Positions 6,030 through 21,801 are shown, numbered from the stretch's first letter. The stretch: DNA of 64,000 nucleotides from Planctomycetota bacterium (GCA_963667375.1 OY763323.1:2405980-2469979); one strand, 5' to 3'. The notes: generated by a model from the sequence alone, not told the origin. A program made the numbers and translations.

Positions 6030-6792
6030 TACAGGAATACCTTTACTGGTGGAGAATTCAGGCTGTTCGGAAACAGCAGAAATGTTTCAGGAAAAGTTTG
6101 GATTCAGGCTGGTGCGTGGTGCGGAGGAGCTGGCTGAGGATGTGCCGGTTCTGCTGTTACTTGATTTCAGCGGTTTGTCCCTGGTGAACCGGGATGATTT
6201 CAAGGAACGGGTGCAGGTTGATTTTGTAAATGGCCGCAGTGGTTTCAGGCTGTCTACCATGAGTAATACCGCGCAGCCGGTGCTGCGGGCGGTCGGTTAC
6301 AATAAGCAGCGTCTGAATTGGCGGGTTCTTGATGCTACCGCGGGGTTAGGGGTAGATGCCATGACTATGGCGGCTGCCGGCTGTGAGGTGACAATGCTGG
6401 AACGTTCTGCGGTGATGGCGGCGCTTCTTGCTGACGGTTTGAGTCGTGCCGGCGCTGATGAACAGCTGCGTGAGGTATGCCGTGGGGTAGATTTGCTGAG
6501 GGAGGACAGTCTGGGATATTTATCCAGGATGGAAGTTGAGAGCTTTGATGTTATCTATCTTGATCCGATGTTTCCCGAGAGACGAAAATCATCAAAGGTC
6601 AAAAAGGAGATGCGGCTCACCCGGCTGATTACTGAGGCTGAGGATAATGCTGAGGCGCTGCTCATGGCCGCACTGGCGACCCCGGTAAGACGGATTGTTC
6701 TCAAGCGACCATTGAAAGCGCCGTTGCTGCATCAAGGAATTTCGAGTCAGATAAAGGGGAAAAGTGTCAGATTTGATATTTTTCTGAGATAG
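6016..6792 (+). CDS. rsmJ: 16S rRNA (guanine1516-N2)-methyltransferase RsmJ-like class I SAM methyltransferase
   Basis: DATAGLGVDAMTMAAAGCEVTMLERS and the IYLDPMFP motif are typical of RsmJ. I prefer ATG 6016, which overlaps the gnd stop by 14 nt. The longer ORF from 5965 runs inside gnd. Confidence 0.75.
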   Translation: MLSGDTGIPLLVENSGCSETAEMFQEKFGFRLVRGAEELAEDVPVLLLLDFSGLSLVNRDDFKERVQVDFVNGRSGFRLSTMSNTAQPVLRAVGYNKQRLNWRVLDATAGLGVDAMTMAAAGCEVTMLERSAVMAALLADGLSRAGADEQLREVCRGVDLLREDSLGYLSRMEVESFDVIYLDPMFPERRKSSKVKKEMRLTRLITEAEDNAEALLMAALATPVRRIVLKRPLKAPLLHQGISSQIKGKSVRFDIFLR

Positions 6793-6962
6793 AAGCTGTG
6801 AATTATATAGCTGATATCCGGCTGAATATGGCAGTATTTGCAGTTTAATCTATGAATATCAGCCAATTCTTACCGGAAGAGTGTTGCTAAAGGCTGAGTT
6901 TCATGAATAATGGGAACATATTTCTGAGTGTTTACTGTTAATGATTATTGCTGGGGATAGAT

Positions 6963-7748
6963 TTGAAGATTATTGCATTTATGAATCAGAAGGGTGGCGT
7001 GGGTAAAACTACGACCACTGTCAGCATTGGCTCGTTTCTTGCTTCTGAGCATGAGAAGAAAGTCTTGCTGATTGACCTTGATCCTCAGGGTAATCTCTCT
7101 GATCATGTCGGAATTGACCCTAATACCACCGAAAAGTCCGTATATAATATTCTGGTTGAAGGTCTGCCGGCGGCCGAAGCTGTGCAGCAGGTATGCGGTA
7201 TGGATGTTATCCCGGCCAATATTGATCTTTCTGCGGCCGAGATTGAGCTGGTAAATATGATGAGTCGGGAACTCAGGCTGAAGAATGCTATTGCTGAAAT
7301 TGCGGATAATTATGATTATATACTTCTTGACTGCCCGCCGAGTCTTGGGCTTCTGACCATATCCGGCCTTTCATTTGCCTCAGAAGTTATTGTGCCGATG
7401 CAGGCTGAATATCTGGCGTTGCGCGGTTTGTCGCAGCTGGTGCATACGATTGAACTGGTAAAAGGGCATCTCAATCCGGGGCTGGTTGTCAGCGGGGTTA
7501 TTTTCTGTATGTTTGACGGCAGAACTCTTCTGGCGCAGAGTGTTCGGGATGAGGTTGAGAGCTACTTTCCTGACAAAGTCTATAATTCCGGGGTAAGGAA
7601 GAATATTCGGCTGGCGGAAGCACCAAGCTATGGTCTGCCGGTAGGACTCTATGATTCCAGCTGTAAGGGCAGTGATGACTATAGATTGATTACCGAAGAA
7701 TTTCTGCTTCGTCATGGCGATAAGCCAAAAAAAAAACTATCAGTATAA
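6963..7748 (+). CDS. ParA/Soj-family P-loop ATPase
   Basis: Deviant Walker A in KIIAFMNQKGGVGKTTTT, followed by DLDPQGN and LLDCPPSLG. The ORF is open from TTG 6948. TTG 6963 gives the classic MKIIAF..NQKGG N-terminus. An A10 tract sits at 7727-7736 just before the stop. Confidence 0.85.
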   Translation: MKIIAFMNQKGGVGKTTTTVSIGSFLASEHEKKVLLIDLDPQGNLSDHVGIDPNTTEKSVYNILVEGLPAAEAVQQVCGMDVIPANIDLSAAEIELVNMMSRELRLKNAIAEIADNYDYILLDCPPSLGLLTISGLSFASEVIVPMQAEYLALRGLSQLVHTIELVKGHLNPGLVVSGVIFCMFDGRTLLAQSVRDEVESYFPDKVYNSGVRKNIRLAEAPSYGLPVGLYDSSCKGSDDYRLITEEFLLRHGDKPKKKLSV

Positions 7749-8397: not shown

Positions 8398-8871
8398 ATG
8401 TTTTTAATATTAGCCTTTTTATTTATAATGATTCCGGTGGTGGAGTTCAGAATTCTCTGGGCTCTGGGAGAGAATATCGGAATTATGCAGACACTTGCAA
8501 TTGTTATTGTCACCGGACTTGTCGGCGCGCAGTTGGCAAGGAGTCAGGGAATAAAGGTATTAAATTCGCTAAATTCTGAGTTGCGTTCCGGAAAGATGCC
8601 GGCGGATTCACTCTTATCAGGTGCACTGGTGCTGGTGGGGGGAGTATTACTGGTTACGCCCGGAATTATGACCGATGCTTTCGGCCTTTGCCTGATGCTG
8701 CCGCCTTTTAGAGCGATTATGGCGCGGGTTTTAAAAAAATATTTCAAATCTCACTTCAATATTGTTAATATGAATAGTTTTCAGAATGATGCCGCTACCG
8801 GGTTTTCCGGAAAAAATCAGGATAATCCCGATTTTGTTGATGTCAATGTTGTTGATGATGATGATGATTAA
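8398..8871 (+). CDS. fxsA: FxsA family membrane protein
   Basis: N-terminal pattern FLFIMIPVVEFRILWALGENIG...GLVGAQLARSQG and LLVTPGIMTDAFGLCLMLPP match the FxsA family layout. Poly-Asp tail at the C-terminus. Confidence 0.8.
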   Translation: MFLILAFLFIMIPVVEFRILWALGENIGIMQTLAIVIVTGLVGAQLARSQGIKVLNSLNSELRSGKMPADSLLSGALVLVGGVLLVTPGIMTDAFGLCLMLPPFRAIMARVLKKYFKSHFNIVNMNSFQNDAATGFSGKNQDNPDFVDVNVVDDDDD

Positions 8872-14108: not shown

Positions 14109-15947
14109 ATGGGAAATACACTTAAAAAGGAATTGTCATTTATTGGTGTTTTCAGTCTGGCCGCAGGAGCGATGATAAGCTCCGGTATCTTTATTCTTCC
14201 CGGAATAGCCTATGCCGCGGCCGGTCCGGCGGTGGTGCTGTCATATTTTCTTGCCGGTATTCTGGCGCTGACTGGAGTACTGAATGTTGTGGAACTCTCT
14301 ACCGCGATGCCGAAAGCCGGTGGGGATTATTACTATGTAAACCGGAGTATGGGGCCGATGCTCGGAACTCTTTCCGGGGTTATGAGTTGGTTTGCACTCT
14401 CGCTGAAGACTGCTTTTGCGATATTTGGTATTGCCGAATTGTTGACACTGATGCTGGGGGCTGATACAACCGTAATCGGGCTGGCAGTATGCGCTATATT
14501 TGTGATTATTAATATACTCGGGGTCAAGGAAGCGGTGCGGCTGGAGATTGTACTGGTTCTGGGGCTGCTGACACTGATGATTCTGTATTTCTTTCTCGGT
14601 ATCTCCTCGGTTGAGGTGTCACATTTTGATCCGTTTGTTCCCAAAGGTATGGGGGCGGTACTCATGACTACCGGGTTTGTCTTTGTCTCGTTTGGTGGTC
14701 TGCTCAAGATATCAAGTGTGGCGGAGGAGGTGGTAAATCCACAGCGGAATATTCCGCTGGGGATGATTGTGGCAGTGGTTGTAATAACCATTCTTTATGT
14801 CTTGCTGCTGGTGGTTACTGTTGGATTGCTGCCGGCGGAGCAGTTGCAGAATTCGCTGACTCCGGTTGCCGATGCCGCTGAGATATTCGCCGGTAAGATT
14901 GGATTCTATGCCATTTCAGTGGCGGCTATGCTGGCGTTTGTTACTACTGCCAATGCCGGAATTATGGCTGCATCACGGTATCCGATAGCCTTAAGCCGGG
15001 ATAATTTACTGCCGAAATTTTTATGTGTTATAAATAAGCGTTTTGCGACTCCGGTGCGTTCGGTGCTACTTACCGGGATCTTTATTGCTGTGTCCTTGTT
15101 TCTGCCGCTTGAGGTGCTGGTTAAAGCGGCATCAACAGTGGTGCTTACGTCATATATTCTGGCTAATGTAGCAATTATTATCCTGCGCGAGAGTAAACTC
15201 CAGAACTACCGTCCGTCATTCACCGCGCCATTCTATCCCTGGATGCAGATTCTGAGTATTATCGCTTTCGGGGTTATCATCAGTGATATGGGGCTCACAA
15301 CACTCAAGATAAGTCTGGGAATAGTTGCGGTGGCAATGCTGCTATATTTCTTTTACGGCAAGAAACGGGCAGATTTTGAATCAGCGTGGGTACATCTGAT
15401 TGCCAGAGTCGGTAATAAAAAGCTGGATTCCTATGATCTTGAAGCTGAACTGAAGGGGATTATTCACCACCGGGATGAGATTGTTTTTGATACCTTTGAC
15501 GCTGTGGTCAGCAGAGCTGCTGTTCTGGATTTTGAAGAGGAGATAGATCGGGATACACTCTTTAAAAAGGTGGCGGAAGTGCTTGAAGGGCGTATCGGAT
15601 CCAGAAGAGATAAGATCTGTGAGCTGCTGGAGGAGCGGGAAGAGTCAAGCAGTACCGCGTTCATTCCGACGGTTGCAATTCCGCATATTATCCTTGATGG
15701 TGAGAATATTTTTGAGCTGGTGCTGGTACGCAGCCGCAAAGGGATCTTCTTTACAAATTCTGCACCGAAGGTGGGCTCGATATTTGTTATCATCGGTACT
15801 CAGGATAAGCGTCAGCTGCACCTGCAGGCTCTGGCAGCTATTGCTCAGGTTATTCAGGGGAAAGACTTTGACCAGCAGTGGCAGGAGGCGAAGAATGAAA
15901 ATCTGCTCAAGGATATCCTGCTGCTCAGTGATCGTCGAAGAGCGTAG
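14109..15947 (+). CDS. APC-family amino acid permease fused to a C-terminal PTS EIIA type-2 (PtsN-like) domain
   Basis: About 430 aa with 12 predicted TM helices, and GAMISSGIFILPG typical of APC transporters. The C-terminal 150 aa or so contain STAFIPTVAIPH (His at nt 15684-15686) and IFVIIGTQD, typical of the EIIA-2 fold. AAGGTGGG SD. Confidence 0.8.
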   Translation: MGNTLKKELSFIGVFSLAAGAMISSGIFILPGIAYAAAGPAVVLSYFLAGILALTGVLNVVELSTAMPKAGGDYYYVNRSMGPMLGTLSGVMSWFALSLKTAFAIFGIAELLTLMLGADTTVIGLAVCAIFVIINILGVKEAVRLEIVLVLGLLTLMILYFFLGISSVEVSHFDPFVPKGMGAVLMTTGFVFVSFGGLLKISSVAEEVVNPQRNIPLGMIVAVVVITILYVLLLVVTVGLLPAEQLQNSLTPVADAAEIFAGKIGFYAISVAAMLAFVTTANAGIMAASRYPIALSRDNLLPKFLCVINKRFATPVRSVLLTGIFIAVSLFLPLEVLVKAASTVVLTSYILANVAIIILRESKLQNYRPSFTAPFYPWMQILSIIAFGVIISDMGLTTLKISLGIVAVAMLLYFFYGKKRADFESAWVHLIARVGNKKLDSYDLEAELKGIIHHRDEIVFDTFDAVVSRAAVLDFEEEIDRDTLFKKVAEVLEGRIGSRRDKICELLEEREESSSTAFIPTVAIPHIILDGENIFELVLVRSRKGIFFTNSAPKVGSIFVIIGTQDKRQLHLQALAAIAQVIQGKDFDQQWQEAKNENLLKDILLLSDRRRA

Positions 15948-16127
15948 TAAGTAGATTCTATTTCGGCTGTTTTTTATGCGCCAGTGATTAATATTGCTCT
16001 GTTATTGCGCAGATAGTGAGCATTTGTATTGCTTTATTACGTATCAGGGTATTTGTGACTTGAAATGACTTTATCATATCAATAGAATAGGCGAAATTTC
16101 GGTTTAAATTGATATAAGGTACAGCTT

Positions 16128-16592
16128 ATGACAAAAGATTATGGTGGCAGGATTTTAAGGCAGAGTCTGCTCTTGGGATTTCTGGCTATATTCTTTTTTC
16201 AGTCGCTGAGTGCGGAAAAACTTCTGCTTCGTTTGTCGCCAAGCGGTATGTCGGTGGTTATTTCAGAACCGGAAATAGCCGGTACGGCTCCCGCATGTGA
16301 GCAGGAAGTATGCTGTCCGCTGGCAATGGTCCTGCCGCTTGATGATTGTCAGGCTGTGGAAACACTCAAGGCTGGCGGTCCAATGCTCTGCTGTTCTGAC
16401 CTGCCTGTAGGTGGAGGTTTGCCCTTCGCCGGTAAAATTCTGCAGTCTTTTCAGGTGCCGGTAAATCTCAATCTTTACTCTGACAGAGTTTTATATAGTA
16501 GTAATGAACCTGCGGGAATTACTGCAGGCTATCTGACTTCACTCCCTCATGGCCCTCCTGGCTATGTCAAGACGACAGTTCTGCGTCTGTGA
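16128..16592 (+). CDS. Hypothetical secreted Cys-rich protein with two vicinal Cys pairs
   Basis: 154 aa. Signal-peptide-like LLLGFLAIFFFQSLSA. Cys at aa 57, 62, 63, 74, 88 and 89 (VCCPLA and MLCCSDL). No recognisable family. Confidence 0.5.
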   Translation: MTKDYGGRILRQSLLLGFLAIFFFQSLSAEKLLLRLSPSGMSVVISEPEIAGTAPACEQEVCCPLAMVLPLDDCQAVETLKAGGPMLCCSDLPVGGGLPFAGKILQSFQVPVNLNLYSDRVLYSSNEPAGITAGYLTSLPHGPPGYVKTTVLRL

Positions 16593-16714
16593 TTCTTATT
16601 AAATAGTGGTTTATTTTCGGGTAAGCAATATTTTGTGCTTATCTGTATGTCCTATTATTTAATAACAGCATCCGTGTGTTAACGGATGGATATCATAACG
16701 TGGAGATTTTTATA

Positions 16715-17443
16715 ATGAAACATCTGAAATATATCTGTGTCGTCTTGTTTGCATGCATTTCTACAACTTTATATGCCGGTAGTACTGATCTTGAAACCTT
16801 TATACAGGAAAATGGCACCAAGAGTATTTTCACCGCGGTATTGTTCTATGATAAAACGGATTCTGCGGCTTATCAGTCTATGGATTCAACTGCCAAGCAG
16901 TTTGCGAAGGATAATTCACGTCGGGTTGTACTGCGTGAGGTCGCTGCAGATTCTGCCGGGGCGGCATCACTGGTAGAGAAGTACCGTCTGCTGCGTGCTC
17001 CCATGCCGCTGCTTCTTGTTTTTGCTCCGAATGGCGCCATTACCCGCGGTTACGCGCAGAAGGTGGAACTCGCTAAACTTCAGACTTCACTGGTGGGTCC
17101 GGTAGAGCAGAAATTGATAAAGTACATGCAGCAGCGGAAACCGGTGGTTATTCGAATTCCAAGCAAAACCCCGCAGGAGAATGCCGATTTTAATACTGTA
17201 ATCACCGATTTTGAGAAGTTGCGCGGGTTTAAACCTGAGGTTCTGGAGGTAATCGCTTTGAGTAAAGATGATAAGAAACTCGAGGAAAAATACGGACTGA
17301 GCCTGTATTCTGGAAAAGCCCAGACCGTGGTGCTTACTACCGCCGGCACTGTCGCCGGTTCTTTTAGCGGGAAGGTTTCCGCCGAGGATATCTCAGAAGC
17401 GCTGAAGAATGCCGGAAGCAGCTGCTGCGCCAACAATTCGTAA
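16715..17443 (+). CDS. Hypothetical secreted/lipoprotein-like protein. It looks like two tandem thioredoxin-fold halves without CxxC, plus a C-terminal CC tail
   Basis: ATG 16715 is preceded by GGAG. N-terminus MKHLKYICVVLFACISTTLYAG. The repeated pattern is LVEKYRLL..PLLLVFAPNGAI and LEEKYGLS..QTVVLTTAGTV. It ends GSSCCANNS. Confidence 0.6.
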   Translation: MKHLKYICVVLFACISTTLYAGSTDLETFIQENGTKSIFTAVLFYDKTDSAAYQSMDSTAKQFAKDNSRRVVLREVAADSAGAASLVEKYRLLRAPMPLLLVFAPNGAITRGYAQKVELAKLQTSLVGPVEQKLIKYMQQRKPVVIRIPSKTPQENADFNTVITDFEKLRGFKPEVLEVIALSKDDKKLEEKYGLSLYSGKAQTVVLTTAGTVAGSFSGKVSAEDISEALKNAGSSCCANNS

Positions 17444-17463
17444 GTGAAAGGAGAATTCGCATA

Positions 17464-18663
17464 ATGAATTTACTTACTATTGTCTGGCGTGAACTCTGGG
17501 AGCGGAAGAATCAGCTGGCAACCAGCTTTCTTGCTGTCTCTCTCGGTGCGGCGGCGATTGTTGCCGTGTATAATATCGCCTATTATACCGAGCTCAAGGT
17601 AAACAAAGATATGAAATCGCTCGGCGCTAATGTTCTGATCCTGCCGAAAAATTCTACGGTGTCGGACTATTATGCCGTCGATATTCAGGGGGCGACAATG
17701 GCTGATTCAATTGTTGATGTTATTACTGCCGCAGGGCTGAAGGGTTTGGATAATATGTCACCAAAGCTCACCTGGAAGACCGACGTTGGTGGTATGAGTA
17801 TGCCGATAACCGGAATCCTTCCGAAGAATGAGATCGAGGCGAAAGAGATCTGGACCGGGGTCAAGGCTTTTAACCCTCTGATAAAAATCGATGAGATGAA
17901 TCTTACCGAAGCTGAGACACTTGCACGCCGGAGATACGTTCATGAGTTAGGCCGTGATCAGGTATTTCTAGGTGCTGATGCTGCAAAAAAACTGGATAAG
18001 AGCAAGGGAGATACTGTTACAATCGGTAATAGGGCGTTTACTGTGGTCTCTATTCTGCCGTCTACCGGTACTGTTGATGACGGCAGAATCTTTGCACATC
18101 TTGATACGGTGCAGGAACTAAGCGGTAAAGGCAGAGTGGTCAGTGTCCTGGAGCTTATGGCCTGCTGCAGTGACCTTCAGCAGGATCTGTTACCGAAACT
18201 TGCCAGATTGCTGCCTGATCAGGAGATTGTTACTATTAATCAGGTCATTGAAACTCAGGTAAAGGCTGGAAAGTTGATGCATAATCTGTCAATACTCTTT
18301 CTGGCGCTGATGGTACTTGTCGGCGGGGCTTCAATAGCAACGTATATGTATGCCAATGTCCGCGACCGGCGTCGGGAGATAGGTACGATGATGGCTTTAG
18401 GGGCTCAGAGCTCGGTATTGCAGCAGATTTTCTTGCTTAAAGCCGGAGTACTTGGTGCGGCCGGCGGTGTACTGGGTTATCTGATTGGTACGGTTTTGGC
18501 GGTATTTTTAGGACCTGTACTGGCTGAGGTGCCGGTTATGCCGCGTCCGGAACTGCTGCTGCTGGCGTTAGGTGTCTGTATTGTGCTGTCGTTGCTGTCA
18601 AGCTATCTGCCGGCACGTCGGGCTGCAGGACTTGACCCGTTCATGACTCTCAGGGAGGGATAA
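17464..18663 (+). CDS. ABC transporter permease, FtsX/MacB (type VII) family
   Basis: 399 aa. TM1 is followed by a periplasmic loop of about 240 aa, then three C-terminal TM helices. This is typical FtsX-like topology. AAAGGAG SD. The CC pair in MACCSDL is at nt 18163-18168. Confidence 0.85.
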   Translation: MNLLTIVWRELWERKNQLATSFLAVSLGAAAIVAVYNIAYYTELKVNKDMKSLGANVLILPKNSTVSDYYAVDIQGATMADSIVDVITAAGLKGLDNMSPKLTWKTDVGGMSMPITGILPKNEIEAKEIWTGVKAFNPLIKIDEMNLTEAETLARRRYVHELGRDQVFLGADAAKKLDKSKGDTVTIGNRAFTVVSILPSTGTVDDGRIFAHLDTVQELSGKGRVVSVLELMACCSDLQQDLLPKLARLLPDQEIVTINQVIETQVKAGKLMHNLSILFLALMVLVGGASIATYMYANVRDRRREIGTMMALGAQSSVLQQIFLLKAGVLGAAGGVLGYLIGTVLAVFLGPVLAEVPVMPRPELLLLALGVCIVLSLLSSYLPARRAAGLDPFMTLREG

Positions 18664-18668
18664 TATAT

Positions 18669-19352
18669 ATGTTTGAATGTAAGAATGTAAGTATGCATTA
18701 CCGGGTACGTGGAAGCATGGTCGAGGCACTTGATGGGGTATACCTCAAGATTGAGCAGGGGGAATCGGTTTCGGTAATTGGTCCCAGCGGCAGTGGTAAA
18801 AGTACTCTGCTGCTTATTCTGGGAGGCATGCTCTCTCCAACTGCGGGTGAGGTTTATTTCGAACAGGAGAATCTGTATCGCTATAAGCCTGACAAGCGGG
18901 CTCAGATTCGCGGAGCCAATATGGGATTTGTCTTTCAGACCTTCAATCTGATCCCGTATCTTAGTGCCCTTGAGAATGTAATGCTGCCGCTGAGTTTAAA
19001 TGAATATGCTCAGAAGAATCAGCGGGAGCAGGCGGTTAGGGTTTTGGAACGGGTAGAGCTGGGGCACAGGCTAGAGCATAAACCGAATGAACTTTCTATC
19101 GGGCAGCAGCAGCGTGTCGCACTGGCGCGGATGCTGGTGACCAATCCCCGGGTAATTCTAGCTGATGAACCGACAGGAAGTCTTGATCCGGAGACCGGAA
19201 AGAATATCCTTGATTTTCTCGATGAGCTTAATCGTGAAGAAGGGAAGACAGTGATTATGGTTACTCATGATCCGGCTGCAGCCGAACGGGCTGAACGGAG
19301 ACTGCGTATTGTTTCCGGGCAGATTGTCGAGGATGATCTGGTCGTTGTATAA
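18669..19352 (+). CDS. ABC transporter ATP-binding protein (MacB/LolD-type)
   Basis: Walker A GPSGSGKST, signature LSIGQQQR, Walker B ILADEPTGSLD, H-loop VTHD. Confidence 0.9.
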   Translation: MFECKNVSMHYRVRGSMVEALDGVYLKIEQGESVSVIGPSGSGKSTLLLILGGMLSPTAGEVYFEQENLYRYKPDKRAQIRGANMGFVFQTFNLIPYLSALENVMLPLSLNEYAQKNQREQAVRVLERVELGHRLEHKPNELSIGQQQRVALARMLVTNPRVILADEPTGSLDPETGKNILDFLDELNREEGKTVIMVTHDPAAAERAERRLRIVSGQIVEDDLVVV

Positions 19353-19379
19353 AGCTGCAGTTTTAACTGAAAATAGGAG

Positions 19380-19411
19380 GAGACCGCCGTTTTGGCGGTC
19401 TCTTTTTTTTT
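19380..19411 (+). terminator. Rho-independent terminator of the ABC cassette
   Basis: Stem gagaccgcc / ggcggtctc (9 bp), followed by a T9 run. Confidence 0.85.
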
Positions 19412-19665: not shown

Positions 19666-21801
19666 ATGTCAAAAAAAACATTTAAAGATGAGTCTGCTGC
19701 GGATTTTGAAATTCAGGATATTGAATTTGAAGATTTATTCAATATTGATGATATACAGAAGCTGCAGGATGAATTTTCAGAGGTAACCGGTGTCGGCTCA
19801 CTGATCACTAAGCCTGATGGTACCCCAATAACCAGACCGAGTAACTTTTGCAGGCTGTGCAATGATATTATCCGAAAAACGGATAAAGGCTGTGAAAATT
19901 GCCGCAAATCTGATGTCGATATCGGGAAGCTTTGTGTTGATGGACCGACGATAAAGCAGTGCCGGAGTGGTGGACTTTGGGATGCAGGTGCGGGGATTAC
20001 CGCCGGCGGCAAACATATTGCGAGCTGGTTTGTCGGGCAAATACGGGATAACACGCAGAATGTTGATAATATCCGCAAGTATGCCATGGAAATAGGTGCG
20101 GATGCTGATGCGGCGGCAGAGGCTTTTGATCAGGTAACATATATGCCGACCGAACATTTTAGAAGTATTGCGGCGGTGCTCTTTACCTTTGCCAATCTGA
20201 TGTCGCAATTGGCATATCAGAATTTGCAGAAAACATTCTTTATAAATGAACACAAGAGAGCTGAAAATGCCTTGCGTGAAAGTGAAGAGCTTTTTCGTAA
20301 TATGTTTAATGTGTCAACTGATGCTATATTTTTACATGAAGCTGATGGAACGATCATTGATGCTAATGAAAGTGCCCTGAAGATGTTTCAACTTACTAAA
20401 GAAGAGGTTTACAACTGTTCAATACTTGATGATTTATCTGCACCCAGTATAACGCGTGGAGACCTTGAACATGTTCTGTCTGCAGCTAATAATGGTGAAA
20501 ACAGGGAATTTGAATGGGAGTCAAAGCGTCCGAAAGACGGTAGCACCTTCCCTTCGATGGTGAGCTTGAAAAAATTCAAGCATCGTGACGGTTACCTGCT
20601 TCTCGCTATAGTGCGGGATATGACTGAATATAAAAAAGCAGAAGAAACACGGGTAAAACTTGAGGAACAGCTCAGGCAAAGTCAGAAGATGGATGCGATA
20701 GGGCAGCTTGCGGGAGGGGTCGCACATGATTTTAATAATATGCTTGGAGGAATAATCGGTGCGGCTGAGGTGTTAAAAGAGTTTTTGCCGGCTGATGAAA
20801 CTGCCCACAAATTGCACCATGTGATTTTGGAGGCCGCTGACAATGCGGCGGCTCTGACCAATAAACTGCTGGTTTTTGCGCGGCATCAGACCAGTATTTC
20901 AACCTCGGTCAATCTGCACAATATTATTCATGAAACCATTGATATTCTTAAACGTACATTGGATAAGAAGATACGTATTGTTGATAAGCTTGCTGCGGGC
21001 TGTGACGTGATTATCGGTGATTCCTCCCAGCTTCAAAGTGCCTTGATTAATCTTGCGATCAACTCTTCACATGCAATGCCGGAGGGGGGAGAGCTGCTTA
21101 TCTCCACCTCGACTATTGAACTTGATGAATTGTATTGCAGCAGCAGTCAATTCAAACTTACGCCGGGGGAATATATTGAAATTGATATCCGGGATACCGG
21201 GACGGGGATACCGGCAGAGATATTGCCGCGGATTTTTGAACCTTTCTTTACGACCAAGGAGGTCGGAAAGGGAACCGGGCTGGGTCTCGCGGCAGTGTAT
21301 GGAACGGTTCGTCAGCATTCGGGGGCGATTTCGGTTTACAGTGAGGTCGGAAGAGGGACATGTTTTCATATCCTGTTGCCGGTGGATAGATCGCATTTGG
21401 AGGCGCATGCAGCTGAGCAGGATGTTATCAGCGGAGTGGGCAATATTCTTGTCGTCGATGATGAATCAGTAATGCGTATAACTGCAGAAGCGATTTTAGA
21501 CTATCTCGGATATACTGTAACCACGGTTGCCAGCGGTAACGAAGCACTTGAACTATTTAGAACCGCACCGGAAAAATTCGATCTGGTGATACTTGATATG
21601 ATAATGCCTGAGATGAACGGTAAGGAATGTTTTTATGCCTTGAGGCAGCTGAGGCCGGATATAAAGGTCATCATTTCTTCCGGCTTTACCCGTGAAGAAG
21701 ATATTGGCAGGCTTAAAGATGAAGGGCTTGCTGGATTTATCCGGAAACCGTTCCGGACATTGGGCTTGAGTCAGCTGGTGGACAGATTAATTTCCAAGTG
21801 A
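19666..21801 (+). CDS. Hybrid sensor histidine kinase/response regulator with N-terminal PocR-like sensory domain and a PAS domain
   Basis: PocR-like Cys-rich region (FCRLCNDIIRKTDKGCENCRKSD). PAS domain (ELFRNMFNVSTDAIFLHE). HisKA H-box GGVAHDFNNML. HATPase N/G boxes (NSSHAM, DTGTGI, GKGTGLGL). REC domain (ILVVDDE...DLVILDMIMP). Confidence 0.9.
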   Translation: MSKKTFKDESAADFEIQDIEFEDLFNIDDIQKLQDEFSEVTGVGSLITKPDGTPITRPSNFCRLCNDIIRKTDKGCENCRKSDVDIGKLCVDGPTIKQCRSGGLWDAGAGITAGGKHIASWFVGQIRDNTQNVDNIRKYAMEIGADADAAAEAFDQVTYMPTEHFRSIAAVLFTFANLMSQLAYQNLQKTFFINEHKRAENALRESEELFRNMFNVSTDAIFLHEADGTIIDANESALKMFQLTKEEVYNCSILDDLSAPSITRGDLEHVLSAANNGENREFEWESKRPKDGSTFPSMVSLKKFKHRDGYLLLAIVRDMTEYKKAEETRVKLEEQLRQSQKMDAIGQLAGGVAHDFNNMLGGIIGAAEVLKEFLPADETAHKLHHVILEAADNAAALTNKLLVFARHQTSISTSVNLHNIIHETIDILKRTLDKKIRIVDKLAAGCDVIIGDSSQLQSALINLAINSSHAMPEGGELLISTSTIELDELYCSSSQFKLTPGEYIEIDIRDTGTGIPAEILPRIFEPFFTTKEVGKGTGLGLAAVYGTVRQHSGAISVYSEVGRGTCFHILLPVDRSHLEAHAAEQDVISGVGNILVVDDESVMRITAEAILDYLGYTVTTVASGNEALELFRTAPEKFDLVILDMIMPEMNGKECFYALRQLRPDIKVIISSGFTREEDIGRLKDEGLAGFIRKPFRTLGLSQLVDRLISK

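Follow-up and report, generated by a model that had tools for sequence, protein, structure and literature searches.

A type VII ABC permease with an invariant vicinal cysteine pair and a tandem thioredoxin-fold partner form, with an ATPase, an envelope module that may handle thiophilic metals or metalloids

In the Mer transport proteins MerT, MerP, MerC and MerF, and at the C-terminal Cys-Cys (CC) pair of MerA, vicinal or paired cysteines serve as hand-over sites for soft metals. ArsD and ArsA of the ars system are cytoplasmic, ArsA not being an ATP-binding cassette (ABC) protein, and the ligand site of CusF is made up of Met, His and Trp. Characterised type VII ABC systems do not transport a substrate over the inner membrane; ATP hydrolysis moves a periplasmic domain, and the systems have dedicated periplasmic partners, as in FtsEX-EnvC, LolCDE-LolA, MacB-MacA and YbbAP-TesA (PMC12646458). 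Here, we analyse a cassette at positions 16128-19352 of a 64,000-nucleotide (nt) stretch of Planctomycetota DNA (the window; GCA_963667375.1 OY763323.1:2405980-2469979), in which open reading frame (ORF) 1, ORF2, a permease and an ATPase follow one another. An earlier reading made from the sequence alone (the sequence-only reading) had described a four-gene unit; the conserved unit consists of three genes, ORF2, permease and ATPase, and ORF1 is a clade-specific fourth. We propose, with a probability of roughly 0.55, that the region is a derived member of an envelope module, comprising a type VII permease homodimer, its ATPase and the dedicated ORF2, that exchanges a thiophilic ligand by thiolates. 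The partner, the proposed thiol chemistry and the likely metal(loid) role are new here, while type VII ABC engines that work with dedicated partners are known. The features that carry the argument are these:

16128-16592, plus strand: ORF1, secreted Cys-rich protein of 154 amino acids (aa), with a signal-peptide-like hydrophobic N-terminus and six Cys (C57, C62, C63, C74, C88, C89)
16715-17443, plus strand: ORF2, periplasmic tandem thioredoxin-fold protein of 242 aa, with the C-terminal end GSSCCANNS
17423-17428, plus strand: codons of the CC pair in the ORF2 tail (aa 237-238); GSSCC is kept in 6/7 close homologues
17464-18663, plus strand: permease of type VII MacB/LolCE fold, FtsX family, 399 aa, with four transmembrane (TM) helices and a large periplasmic domain
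18163-18168, plus strand: codons of the permease CC pair (C234-C235) within MACCSDL (aa 232-238), invariant in 88/88 relatives
18669-19352, plus strand: ABC ATPase resembling LolD and the MacB nucleotide-binding domain (NBD), with Walker A, Walker B and H-loop intact

All literal statements of the sequence-only reading about ORFs, motifs, coordinates and codons agree with the ORF list and with direct reading of the DNA, which also places the codons for the second of the two CC pairs of ORF1 (VCCPLA and PMLCCSDLPVGGG) at nt 16389-16394.

The permease is a type VII ABC protein that none of the characterised clades includes. It counts as type VII because it has the FtsX C-terminal domain (PF02687, 63.6 bits, cut-off 25.5) and the MacB periplasmic core domain (MacB_PCD; PF12704, 43.8 bits, cut-off 27) together with a matching fold, and it stands outside the characterised clades because every specific NCBIfam model is far under its cut-off, be it MacB (NF007826, 63.7 versus 966 bits; the NBD is here a separate gene), lolCE (TIGR02212, 60.5 versus 362), LolE (44.3 versus 439 and 38.7 versus 540), LolC (23.5 versus 473), FtsX (TIGR00439, 26.1 versus 255) or YbbP. 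It thus belongs to none of the clades considered in the sequence-only reading, namely LolE, MacB and HrtB. An AlphaFold2 model of the monomer, made with 78 homologues (predicted local distance difference test score, pLDDT, 77), has helices at residues 15-52, 258-301, 316-354 and 363-388, an alpha/beta periplasmic domain at 53-257 and long TM1 and TM2 stalk helices. The top Foldseek matches are LolCDE, MacB, YbbP and HrtB, with a probability of 1.0 and an identity of 15-22%. In the model, a strand (228-231) precedes the CC pair and a helix (236-249) follows it; this part of the membrane-proximal periplasmic subdomain comes one beta-alpha unit ahead of the TM2 stalk helix.

At least 937 permease relatives were found at E <= 1e-10, and the CC pair is present in all full-length permeases among the 120 best of them. 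When 88 genomic loci are aligned, C234, C235 and E230 show no variation (88/88), and a third periplasmic Cys, part of a GCG motif and aligned with window residue 142 (nt ~17887-17889), is found in 83 of the 88 relatives. The description of an FtsX-type permease with a CC pair in its periplasmic part is therefore borne out by Pfam, AlphaFold2 and Foldseek as well as by conservation. We know of no characterised type VII permease that has an invariant vicinal Cys pair in its periplasmic domain. Selenocysteine (Sec) at the permease CC was considered and rejected, the sole truncated homologue (P0006, 255 aa) being explained by a one-base frameshift at codon 233. P0006 comes from a sibling genome of 92% identity, and its frameshift sits in a GG run immediately 5' of the CC codons, either as a pseudogene or as a long-read assembly error. 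The ATPase is a standard LolD/MacB-type NBD (PF00005, 118.9 bits; LolD model TIGR02211, 231 bits, under the cut-off of 307.75), and its gene is located 3' of the permease gene in at least 69 of 83 loci with a median gap of 3 nt.

The AlphaFold2 model of ORF2 (mean pLDDT 85, core >90) comprises two thioredoxin (Trx)-like domains over residues 25-233 and a disordered tail at 236-242 (pLDDT 28), and Foldseek matches it to PfPDO, PDI b-b' domains, ERp44, ERp57 and calsequestrin. No CxxC or CxxS active site is present in either Trx domain of the window protein or in its homologues, which all share the same cis-Pro loop (APxP...APNGA) of the Trx fold. Two Trx-fold halves without CxxC, followed by a flexible Cys tail, are what the sequence-only reading had seen, and both structural methods agree with it. 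Pfam and NCBIfam hold no family model for ORF2, and a PDB sequence search returned marginal thioredoxin matches only. A word-based search found only seven relatives, from which a hidden Markov model (HMM) was made that detects the wider family. With this model, an ORF2-family gene was found directly 5' of the permease gene and on the same strand in 85/85 loci, at a median gap of 15 nt, so that, for ORF2 and the permease, the co-occurrence check suggested earlier comes out complete.

The ORF2-family tails are typically Cys-rich low-complexity stretches, such as GCGPGGCGPGGC, GCGPGGCGPGGCGPKK, SCGPGCSCHH and KCCDDENCKHH. Exactly three Cys are present in 62/92 tails, at least three in 81/92, and CC in 33/92; in ORF2, the Cys tail is thus kept but the CC pair itself is not general. 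The SSCC tail of the window protein is a minimal version of the family tail. Ten planctomycete loci (L012, L017, L020, L023, L029, L032, L038, L062, L073, L076) have two tandem ORF2 paralogues 5' of the permease, often with different tails, such as GCGPGGCGPGGC paired with PCAGGKCGPGGC or with SCGxGCxCHH.

In two loci, L013 (from a WOR-3 metagenome-assembled genome; 5169-5252) and L021 (673-751), the ORF2 homologue has an in-frame UGA after GGGGG at the position where relatives have their first tail Cys. Beyond the UGA, translation could continue for 27 (L013) and 25 (L021) codons, reading GGGGG-UGA-GG...GCAP...CGP with two more Cys, up to a second stop immediately 5' of the permease gene; in the corresponding stretch, the relative L048 has GGCGSGGCAPSGCGP. 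In both loci, an 8-bp hairpin begins 16 nt after the UGA, and two compensatory pairs distinguish the hairpin of L013 from that of L021. We regard both as candidate Sec/Cys pairs, located at the first Cys of the tail. Exchange between Sec and Cys typically affects residues that are chemically active, and the candidate Sec forms would argue for a chemically active tail. The search for UGA at the CC positions thus gave a divided result: there is none in the permease, where P0006 is a frameshift, and no Sec-type in-frame UGA in the window cassette, but there are candidates at the ORF2 tail of these two loci.

A one-genome-per-species scan gave at least 477 module relatives, of which 80 loci were kept, from Planctomycetota, Verrucomicrobiota, Hydrogenedentes, WOR-3, Omnitrophota, Acidobacteriota, Desulfomonilaceae and other Deltaproteobacteria, Sumerlaeaceae, Victivallales and Parachlamydiales; the 85 loci with co-occurring ORF2 and permease span about ten phyla. 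Neighbouring ORFs were clustered and the cluster representatives scored against NCBIfam (June 2026 release) and Pfam. In 66 of the 85 loci, the module has ars genes beside it, for the most part in the same orientation and no more than 2.5 kb away. They encode ArsR/SmtB regulators (61 loci; many with ELCVC and/or a C-terminal GGCCP), ACR3 arsenite efflux proteins (48 loci; TIGR00832, 451 bits, cut-off 283), thioredoxin-type ArsC (25 loci; TIGR02691, 145 bits, below the cut-off of 174), the arsenite methyltransferase ArsM (20 loci; NF008823, 338 bits, cut-off 263), ArsP-type permeases (10 loci; PF03773, 248 bits, cut-off 32) and ArsD (6 loci; NF033727, 116 bits, cut-off 90), and the typical operon order is arsR-ORF2-permease-ATPase-acr3-arsC. 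Many of the neighbouring ArsR-family regulators end in SGGCCP and others carry ELCVC(Q/D), for example at L002:10256-10630 and L032:3850-4233, and two or three ArsR paralogues are present at several loci.

A neighbour-joining tree of the permeases has three clades. Clade C, the majority, combines ars context with three-Cys tails. In clade B (Gimesia, Fuerstiella, Thalassoglobus and relatives), the tails contain Cys and His, and the cassettes lie directly 3' of CusA/CzcA heavy-metal RND pumps (TIGR00914, 858 and 772 bits, cut-off 701). The window falls in clade A. No mer genes were recognised among the recurrent neighbours, and a link to HgcA and mercury methylation was discarded, as no ORF of any locus has the HgcA cap-helix motif. 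The sequence-only reading had noted that no membrane-fusion protein (MFP) or outer-membrane factor (OMF) is encoded, and indeed none is found in the cassette or in the window from 13 to 24 kb; an MFP or OEP gene lies near only a few relatives. Because relatives reside in ars operons or beside CusA/CzcA pumps, their context points independently to a thiophilic metal or metalloid, which is the most likely ligand for the family, and it favours arsenic over mercury. For the majority version, As(III) or a related arsenical is the likely substrate because of the ArsR-controlled ars operon setting. The metal(loid) assignment, made by association, is solid for the family and extrapolated for the window.

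Altogether, we favour a model that adds metal binding, an ORF2-permease contact, a direction of transfer (from chaperone to pump or from pump to carrier), an exit route and a role for ORF1 to the observed gene anatomy, folds, conservation and gene contexts. ORF2 would be a redox-inactive tandem-Trx scaffold whose flexible Cys tail binds thiophilic metal or metalloid species, and the ligand would pass by thiolate swapping between this tail and the CC pair in the membrane-proximal periplasmic domain of the permease. Cytoplasmic ATP hydrolysis would cause a periplasmic conformational change (mechanotransmission) by which the site is loaded or stripped, making the transfer directional, and in the main-clade version the third Cys would complete a three-thiolate site. 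Arsenite binding to vicinal thiols is strong (PMC6205960). The ancestral or majority version likely had three tail Cys and three periplasmic Cys per permease protomer and resided in ArsR-controlled ars operons; in the subclade of the window, the ars linkage would have been lost, both proteins trimmed to the bare CC and ORF1 gained, which probably supplies or accepts the ligand. More tentatively, and at somewhat less than even odds, we speculate that the module is an unrecognised, widespread metal(loid)-resistance device and the first type VII ABC system acting on an inorganic thiophilic substrate, mostly As(III), by thiolate and occasionally selenolate exchange, and that the clade of the window has been re-targeted with ORF1.

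Clade A comprises the window, L001/L005, L006 (on the same contig as L088), L004, L085/L086 and L087. Its flanks contain no ars or heavy-metal genes; an RND pump near L086, considered as a metal context for the clade, is of a generic multidrug type with a TetR regulator and not of the heavy-metal (HME) type. The third permease Cys has been lost in five loci only (the window, L001, L005, L004 and L006), and it is in these five that the ORF2 tail has gone from three Cys to a bare CC. Of the evidence internal to the family, this parallel loss in two proteins speaks most clearly for cooperation between the two sites, but, being one evolutionary event, it is only a hint. The window cassette looks like a trimmed, derived variant of the three-gene module, and as the substrate of its clade one may reasonably guess at a soft species with two thiolate ligands.

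An ORF1-like gene lies directly 5' of ORF2 in all clade A members and in no other loci, while the gene before it differs within the clade (AA_permease-EIIA, AraC or inositol phosphatase). We count ORF1 as a real gene because the ratio of nonsynonymous to synonymous differences (pN/pS) is 0.22 against the 92%-identity relative L001 (0.06-0.11 for the other three genes), its Cys are conserved, and its conserved C-terminus varies at synonymous sites. This C-terminus is invariant as HGPPGYVKTTVLRL and reads PPG[YF]VxTTVLR[LIM] across relatives. The motif PPGYVKTTVLRL was considered as a general sorting tag and rejected, no other ORF of the window or the 88 loci ending so; a DNA element was likewise rejected, the synonymous sites inside the motif being variable. 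Homologues of ORF1 occur in about six genomes and are missing from ~80 of the 88 loci. An exhaustive profile search of 1.84 billion representative proteins returned three relatives, a metagenome scan with the C-terminal motif returned none, and nothing related was found in Pfam, NCBIfam or the PDB. Both CC pairs are kept in four close genomes and partly in two relatives of 26% identity. ORF1 is therefore a lineage-specific accessory outside the ancestral module: as to its presence in relatives, a real gene with Cys conserved in close genomes, but one confined to a handful of genomes.

ORF1 and the permease share the heptad M-x-C-C-S-D-L, which the sequence-only reading had set among the vicinal-cysteine motifs tying the cassette together. 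The likeness is at the protein level, as had been stated, because the codons differ (atg gcc tgc tgc agt gac ctt in the permease versus atg ctc tgc tgt tct gac ctg in ORF1). The ORF1 and permease versions are MLCCSDL and MACCSDL in the window and L001, MLCCSEL and MACCSTL in L004, SVCCTDI (with M(-2) lost) and MACCSDL in L006/L088, SSCPAC and MGCCQKV in L085, and VCCVDY and MGCCQQV in L087. What persists is a core, CC[ST][DE][LI], in four related genomes only and absent beyond, and the heptad was accordingly rejected as a family signature. Across the permease family, the residues after CC are variable (Q/K/D/N/S, then E/Q/D, then mostly I), so that the SDL part is limited to the closest relatives. 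A match to CC[ST][DE][LIVM] would arise by chance with a probability of ~0.01, a rough estimate over three CC comparisons, and the four genomes are not independent of one another. The surroundings of the motif also differ, S-D-L starting a helix in the permease model and P-x-GGG following in ORF1. The heptad is possibly a meaningful mimicry inside a small clade, and we do not regard it as what ties the cassette together.

Several points weigh against thiolate exchange as the function of the module, and in particular against the case as first made for the window. The shared heptad is real, encoded by different codons, but it decays to its core within four genomes and is absent beyond them. The whole 64-kb window has no HMM match to Acr3, ArsR, ArsM, ArsC, ArsD or ArsP, and because ars and metal genes are absent from it, we infer metal handling by the window from relatives of ~50% identity; its missing third permease Cys, CC-only tail and missing metal neighbours weaken the metal case of the sequence-only reading. 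A membrane-fusion or outer-membrane partner is not consistently present in relatives. The permease model, being a monomer, is compatible with the CC pairs lying at a cavity or at the dimer interface. As(III)-thiolate exchange itself needs no ATP, which makes the role of the ATPase in it a conjecture, and adjacency to ars operons could reflect damage repair instead of transport. The idea of a soft-metal thiol relay on a mechanotransmission ABC engine is thus partly supported, because of the context of the relatives more than because of the heptad: the conservation of CC and tail, the 85/85 co-occurrence and the ars and CusA context speak for it, while the heptad, ORF1 and a window clade without metal genes do not.

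The repair idea belongs to a different reading, in which the module serves envelope thiol redox or protein quality control: ORF2, resembling PDI b-b', would hold periplasmic proteins that are thiol-damaged or metal-blocked, the Cys sites would form or reduce mixed disulfides, and the ABC engine would release or extract the clients. The closest structural matches of ORF2 (PDI b-b' domains, ERp57, ERp44, PfPDO) and its invariant cis-Pro loop fit such a function, as do the position of the permease CC at a helix N-terminus in the model, like the redox-active Cys of Trx-fold proteins, and the recurrence of genes for DsbD_2/CcdA, thioredoxin and ArsF-like Trx near the cassette. Yet these genes are found in a minority of loci (~7-10 each), neither Trx domain has a CxxC or CxxS, and the tails (GCGPGGCGPGGC, or CxCHH with its His) resemble metal-binding low-complexity stretches rather than redox motifs; moreover, both the exactly three Cys of most tails and the three Cys that each permease has in the periplasm fit a three-sulfur As(III) site. 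We consider this reading improbable. Slightly more improbable still is a Lol-like extraction or trafficking system, in which the permease would hand a membrane- or lipid-linked cargo (a lipoprotein, thio-lipid or polysulfide carrier, ORF2 or ORF1) to the carrier ORF2, and the Cys would be structural or serve covalent tethering. LolCDE chains are top structural matches and lolCE is among the best sequence-family matches, structural neighbours also include HrtB and YbbP, which pull compounds out of the membrane, the MFP/OMF partner is missing as in Lol, and the N-termini of some ORF2 homologues resemble a lipobox (...LTGC in L017, for instance). However, TIGR02212 scores 60 bits against its cut-off of 362, each cassette has one permease gene versus two different ones in LolCDE, ORF2 has a Trx fold and not the LolA beta-barrel, and the invariant CC, the Cys/His tails and the placement in ars operons and beside CusA/CzcA would all be left unexplained.

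A further question is whether ORF1 is an independent neighbour and the heptad a coincidence, leaving the three-gene module as the only functional unit. ORF1 has its own conserved promoter-like site and is separated from ORF2 by a 118-274 nt spacer with a hairpin; together with its rarity, the decay of the heptad (no longer recognisable in L085 and L087) and the different structural settings of the motif, this gives the idea some substance. Against it, all clade A genomes have the genes in the order ORF1-ORF2-permease-ATPase despite the differing upstream gene, ORF1 is Cys-rich and secreted like its neighbours, and no strong terminator separates it from ORF2. On balance, independence of ORF1 seems rather unlikely to us.

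Compared with type VII systems (LolCDE-LolA, MacAB-TolC, FtsEX-EnvC, YbbAP-TesA, HrtBA), the module shares four TM helices, the FtsX C-terminal domain, the MacB-type core, a separate LolD-like ATPase and a co-encoded periplasmic partner; it differs in that identity is 15-22%, the partner is a tandem-Trx protein with a Cys tail and not LolA, MacA, EnvC or TesA, MFP and OMF are lacking, and most relatives lie in ars operons. The proposed logic is that of ArsD-ArsAB, where a small protein with Cys clusters, vicinal pairs included, passes a thiophilic metalloid through ligand exchange to an ATP-driven exporter of the same ars operon; unlike there, the Cys sites of the module are periplasmic and the engine is a mechanotransmission ABC, and there is no sequence or fold relationship. 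The analogy to Mer drawn in the sequence-only reading holds for the chemistry of vicinal Cys, but none of the four proteins matches a Mer or HMA family in Pfam or NCBIfam, and the relatives are found in an arsenic or CusA/CzcA context, not with mercury. As in CusF-CusCBA, a periplasmic carrier would feed an envelope efflux machine, and clade B cassettes even lie 3' of CusA/CzcA pumps, whereas here a Cys-rich tail sits on a Trx scaffold and the engine is ABC, not RND.

We found no described system of this composition, in line with what had been surmised: Pfam and NCBIfam have no model for ORF1, ORF2 or this permease clade specifically, and full-text searches, whose coverage is partial so that absence is no proof, returned no description of an ORF2-permease-ATPase system. 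An arsenite-induced FtsX-like permease in the literature is an unrelated Xanthomonas gene. A 2018 survey of prokaryotic ars genes mentions no ABC transporter and no periplasmic step (PMC6205960). Arsenic resistance is regarded as well catalogued, yet an uncurated three-gene module is embedded in the ars operons of many lineages. If our model is correct, it would widen the substrate range of type VII ABC systems, give the arsenic detoxification of diderm anaerobes a periplasmic step driven by ATP, offer a tractable system in which thiolate hand-over is coupled to mechanotransmission, and provide new markers with which metal(loid) cycling could be followed in metagenomes from anoxic peat, lakes and sediments. 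The clade of the window would illustrate how such a module is re-tooled, its Cys sites being trimmed and a Cys-rich subunit added.

Genes two to four of the cassette are tightly packed, as the sequence-only reading had described, with 20 nt between ORF2 and permease and 5 nt between permease and ATPase, GGAG-type Shine-Dalgarno sites in front of both downstream genes and a closing terminator-like hairpin. Three further DNA-level features accompany the genes:

16060-16088, plus strand: putative promoter-like site 5' of ORF1, TTGAAA-17-TAGAAT, from a consensus scan (10/12 matches)
16669-16688, plus strand: intercistronic stem-loop CATCCGT-GTGTTA-ACGGATG, ~25 nt 5' of the ORF2 start and without a following U-tract
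19375-19407, plus strand: intrinsic-terminator-like hairpin at the operon end, with a 15-bp stem (7 GC pairs), a 3-nt loop and then a T-run

The promoter-like blocks CTTGA...ATAGAAT are conserved in L001, L088 and L004, where the remaining spacer is divergent. The stem-loop between ORF1 and ORF2 keeps its position while its stem sequence differs in L001 (~7206-7226), L088 (~6552-6573), L004 (~8561-8583) and L085 (~6838-6877); its function may lie in mRNA stability or in attenuation.

Downstream of the cassette, the window encodes a PocR/PAS/HisKA/HATPase/REC hybrid histidine kinase (19666-21801) that is shared with L001. Its presence had been recorded correctly, but the synteny is lost in L004 and L088; because other genes take its place there, the kinase is probably outside the system, and it was rejected as a regulator of the cassette. 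Upstream of ORF1, at 14109-15947, lies a gene unrelated to the cassette for a 612-aa amino-acid permease fused to a C-terminal phosphotransferase system (PTS) EIIA-like domain; this unusual AA_permease-EIIA fusion is syntenic in L001, L004 and L088.

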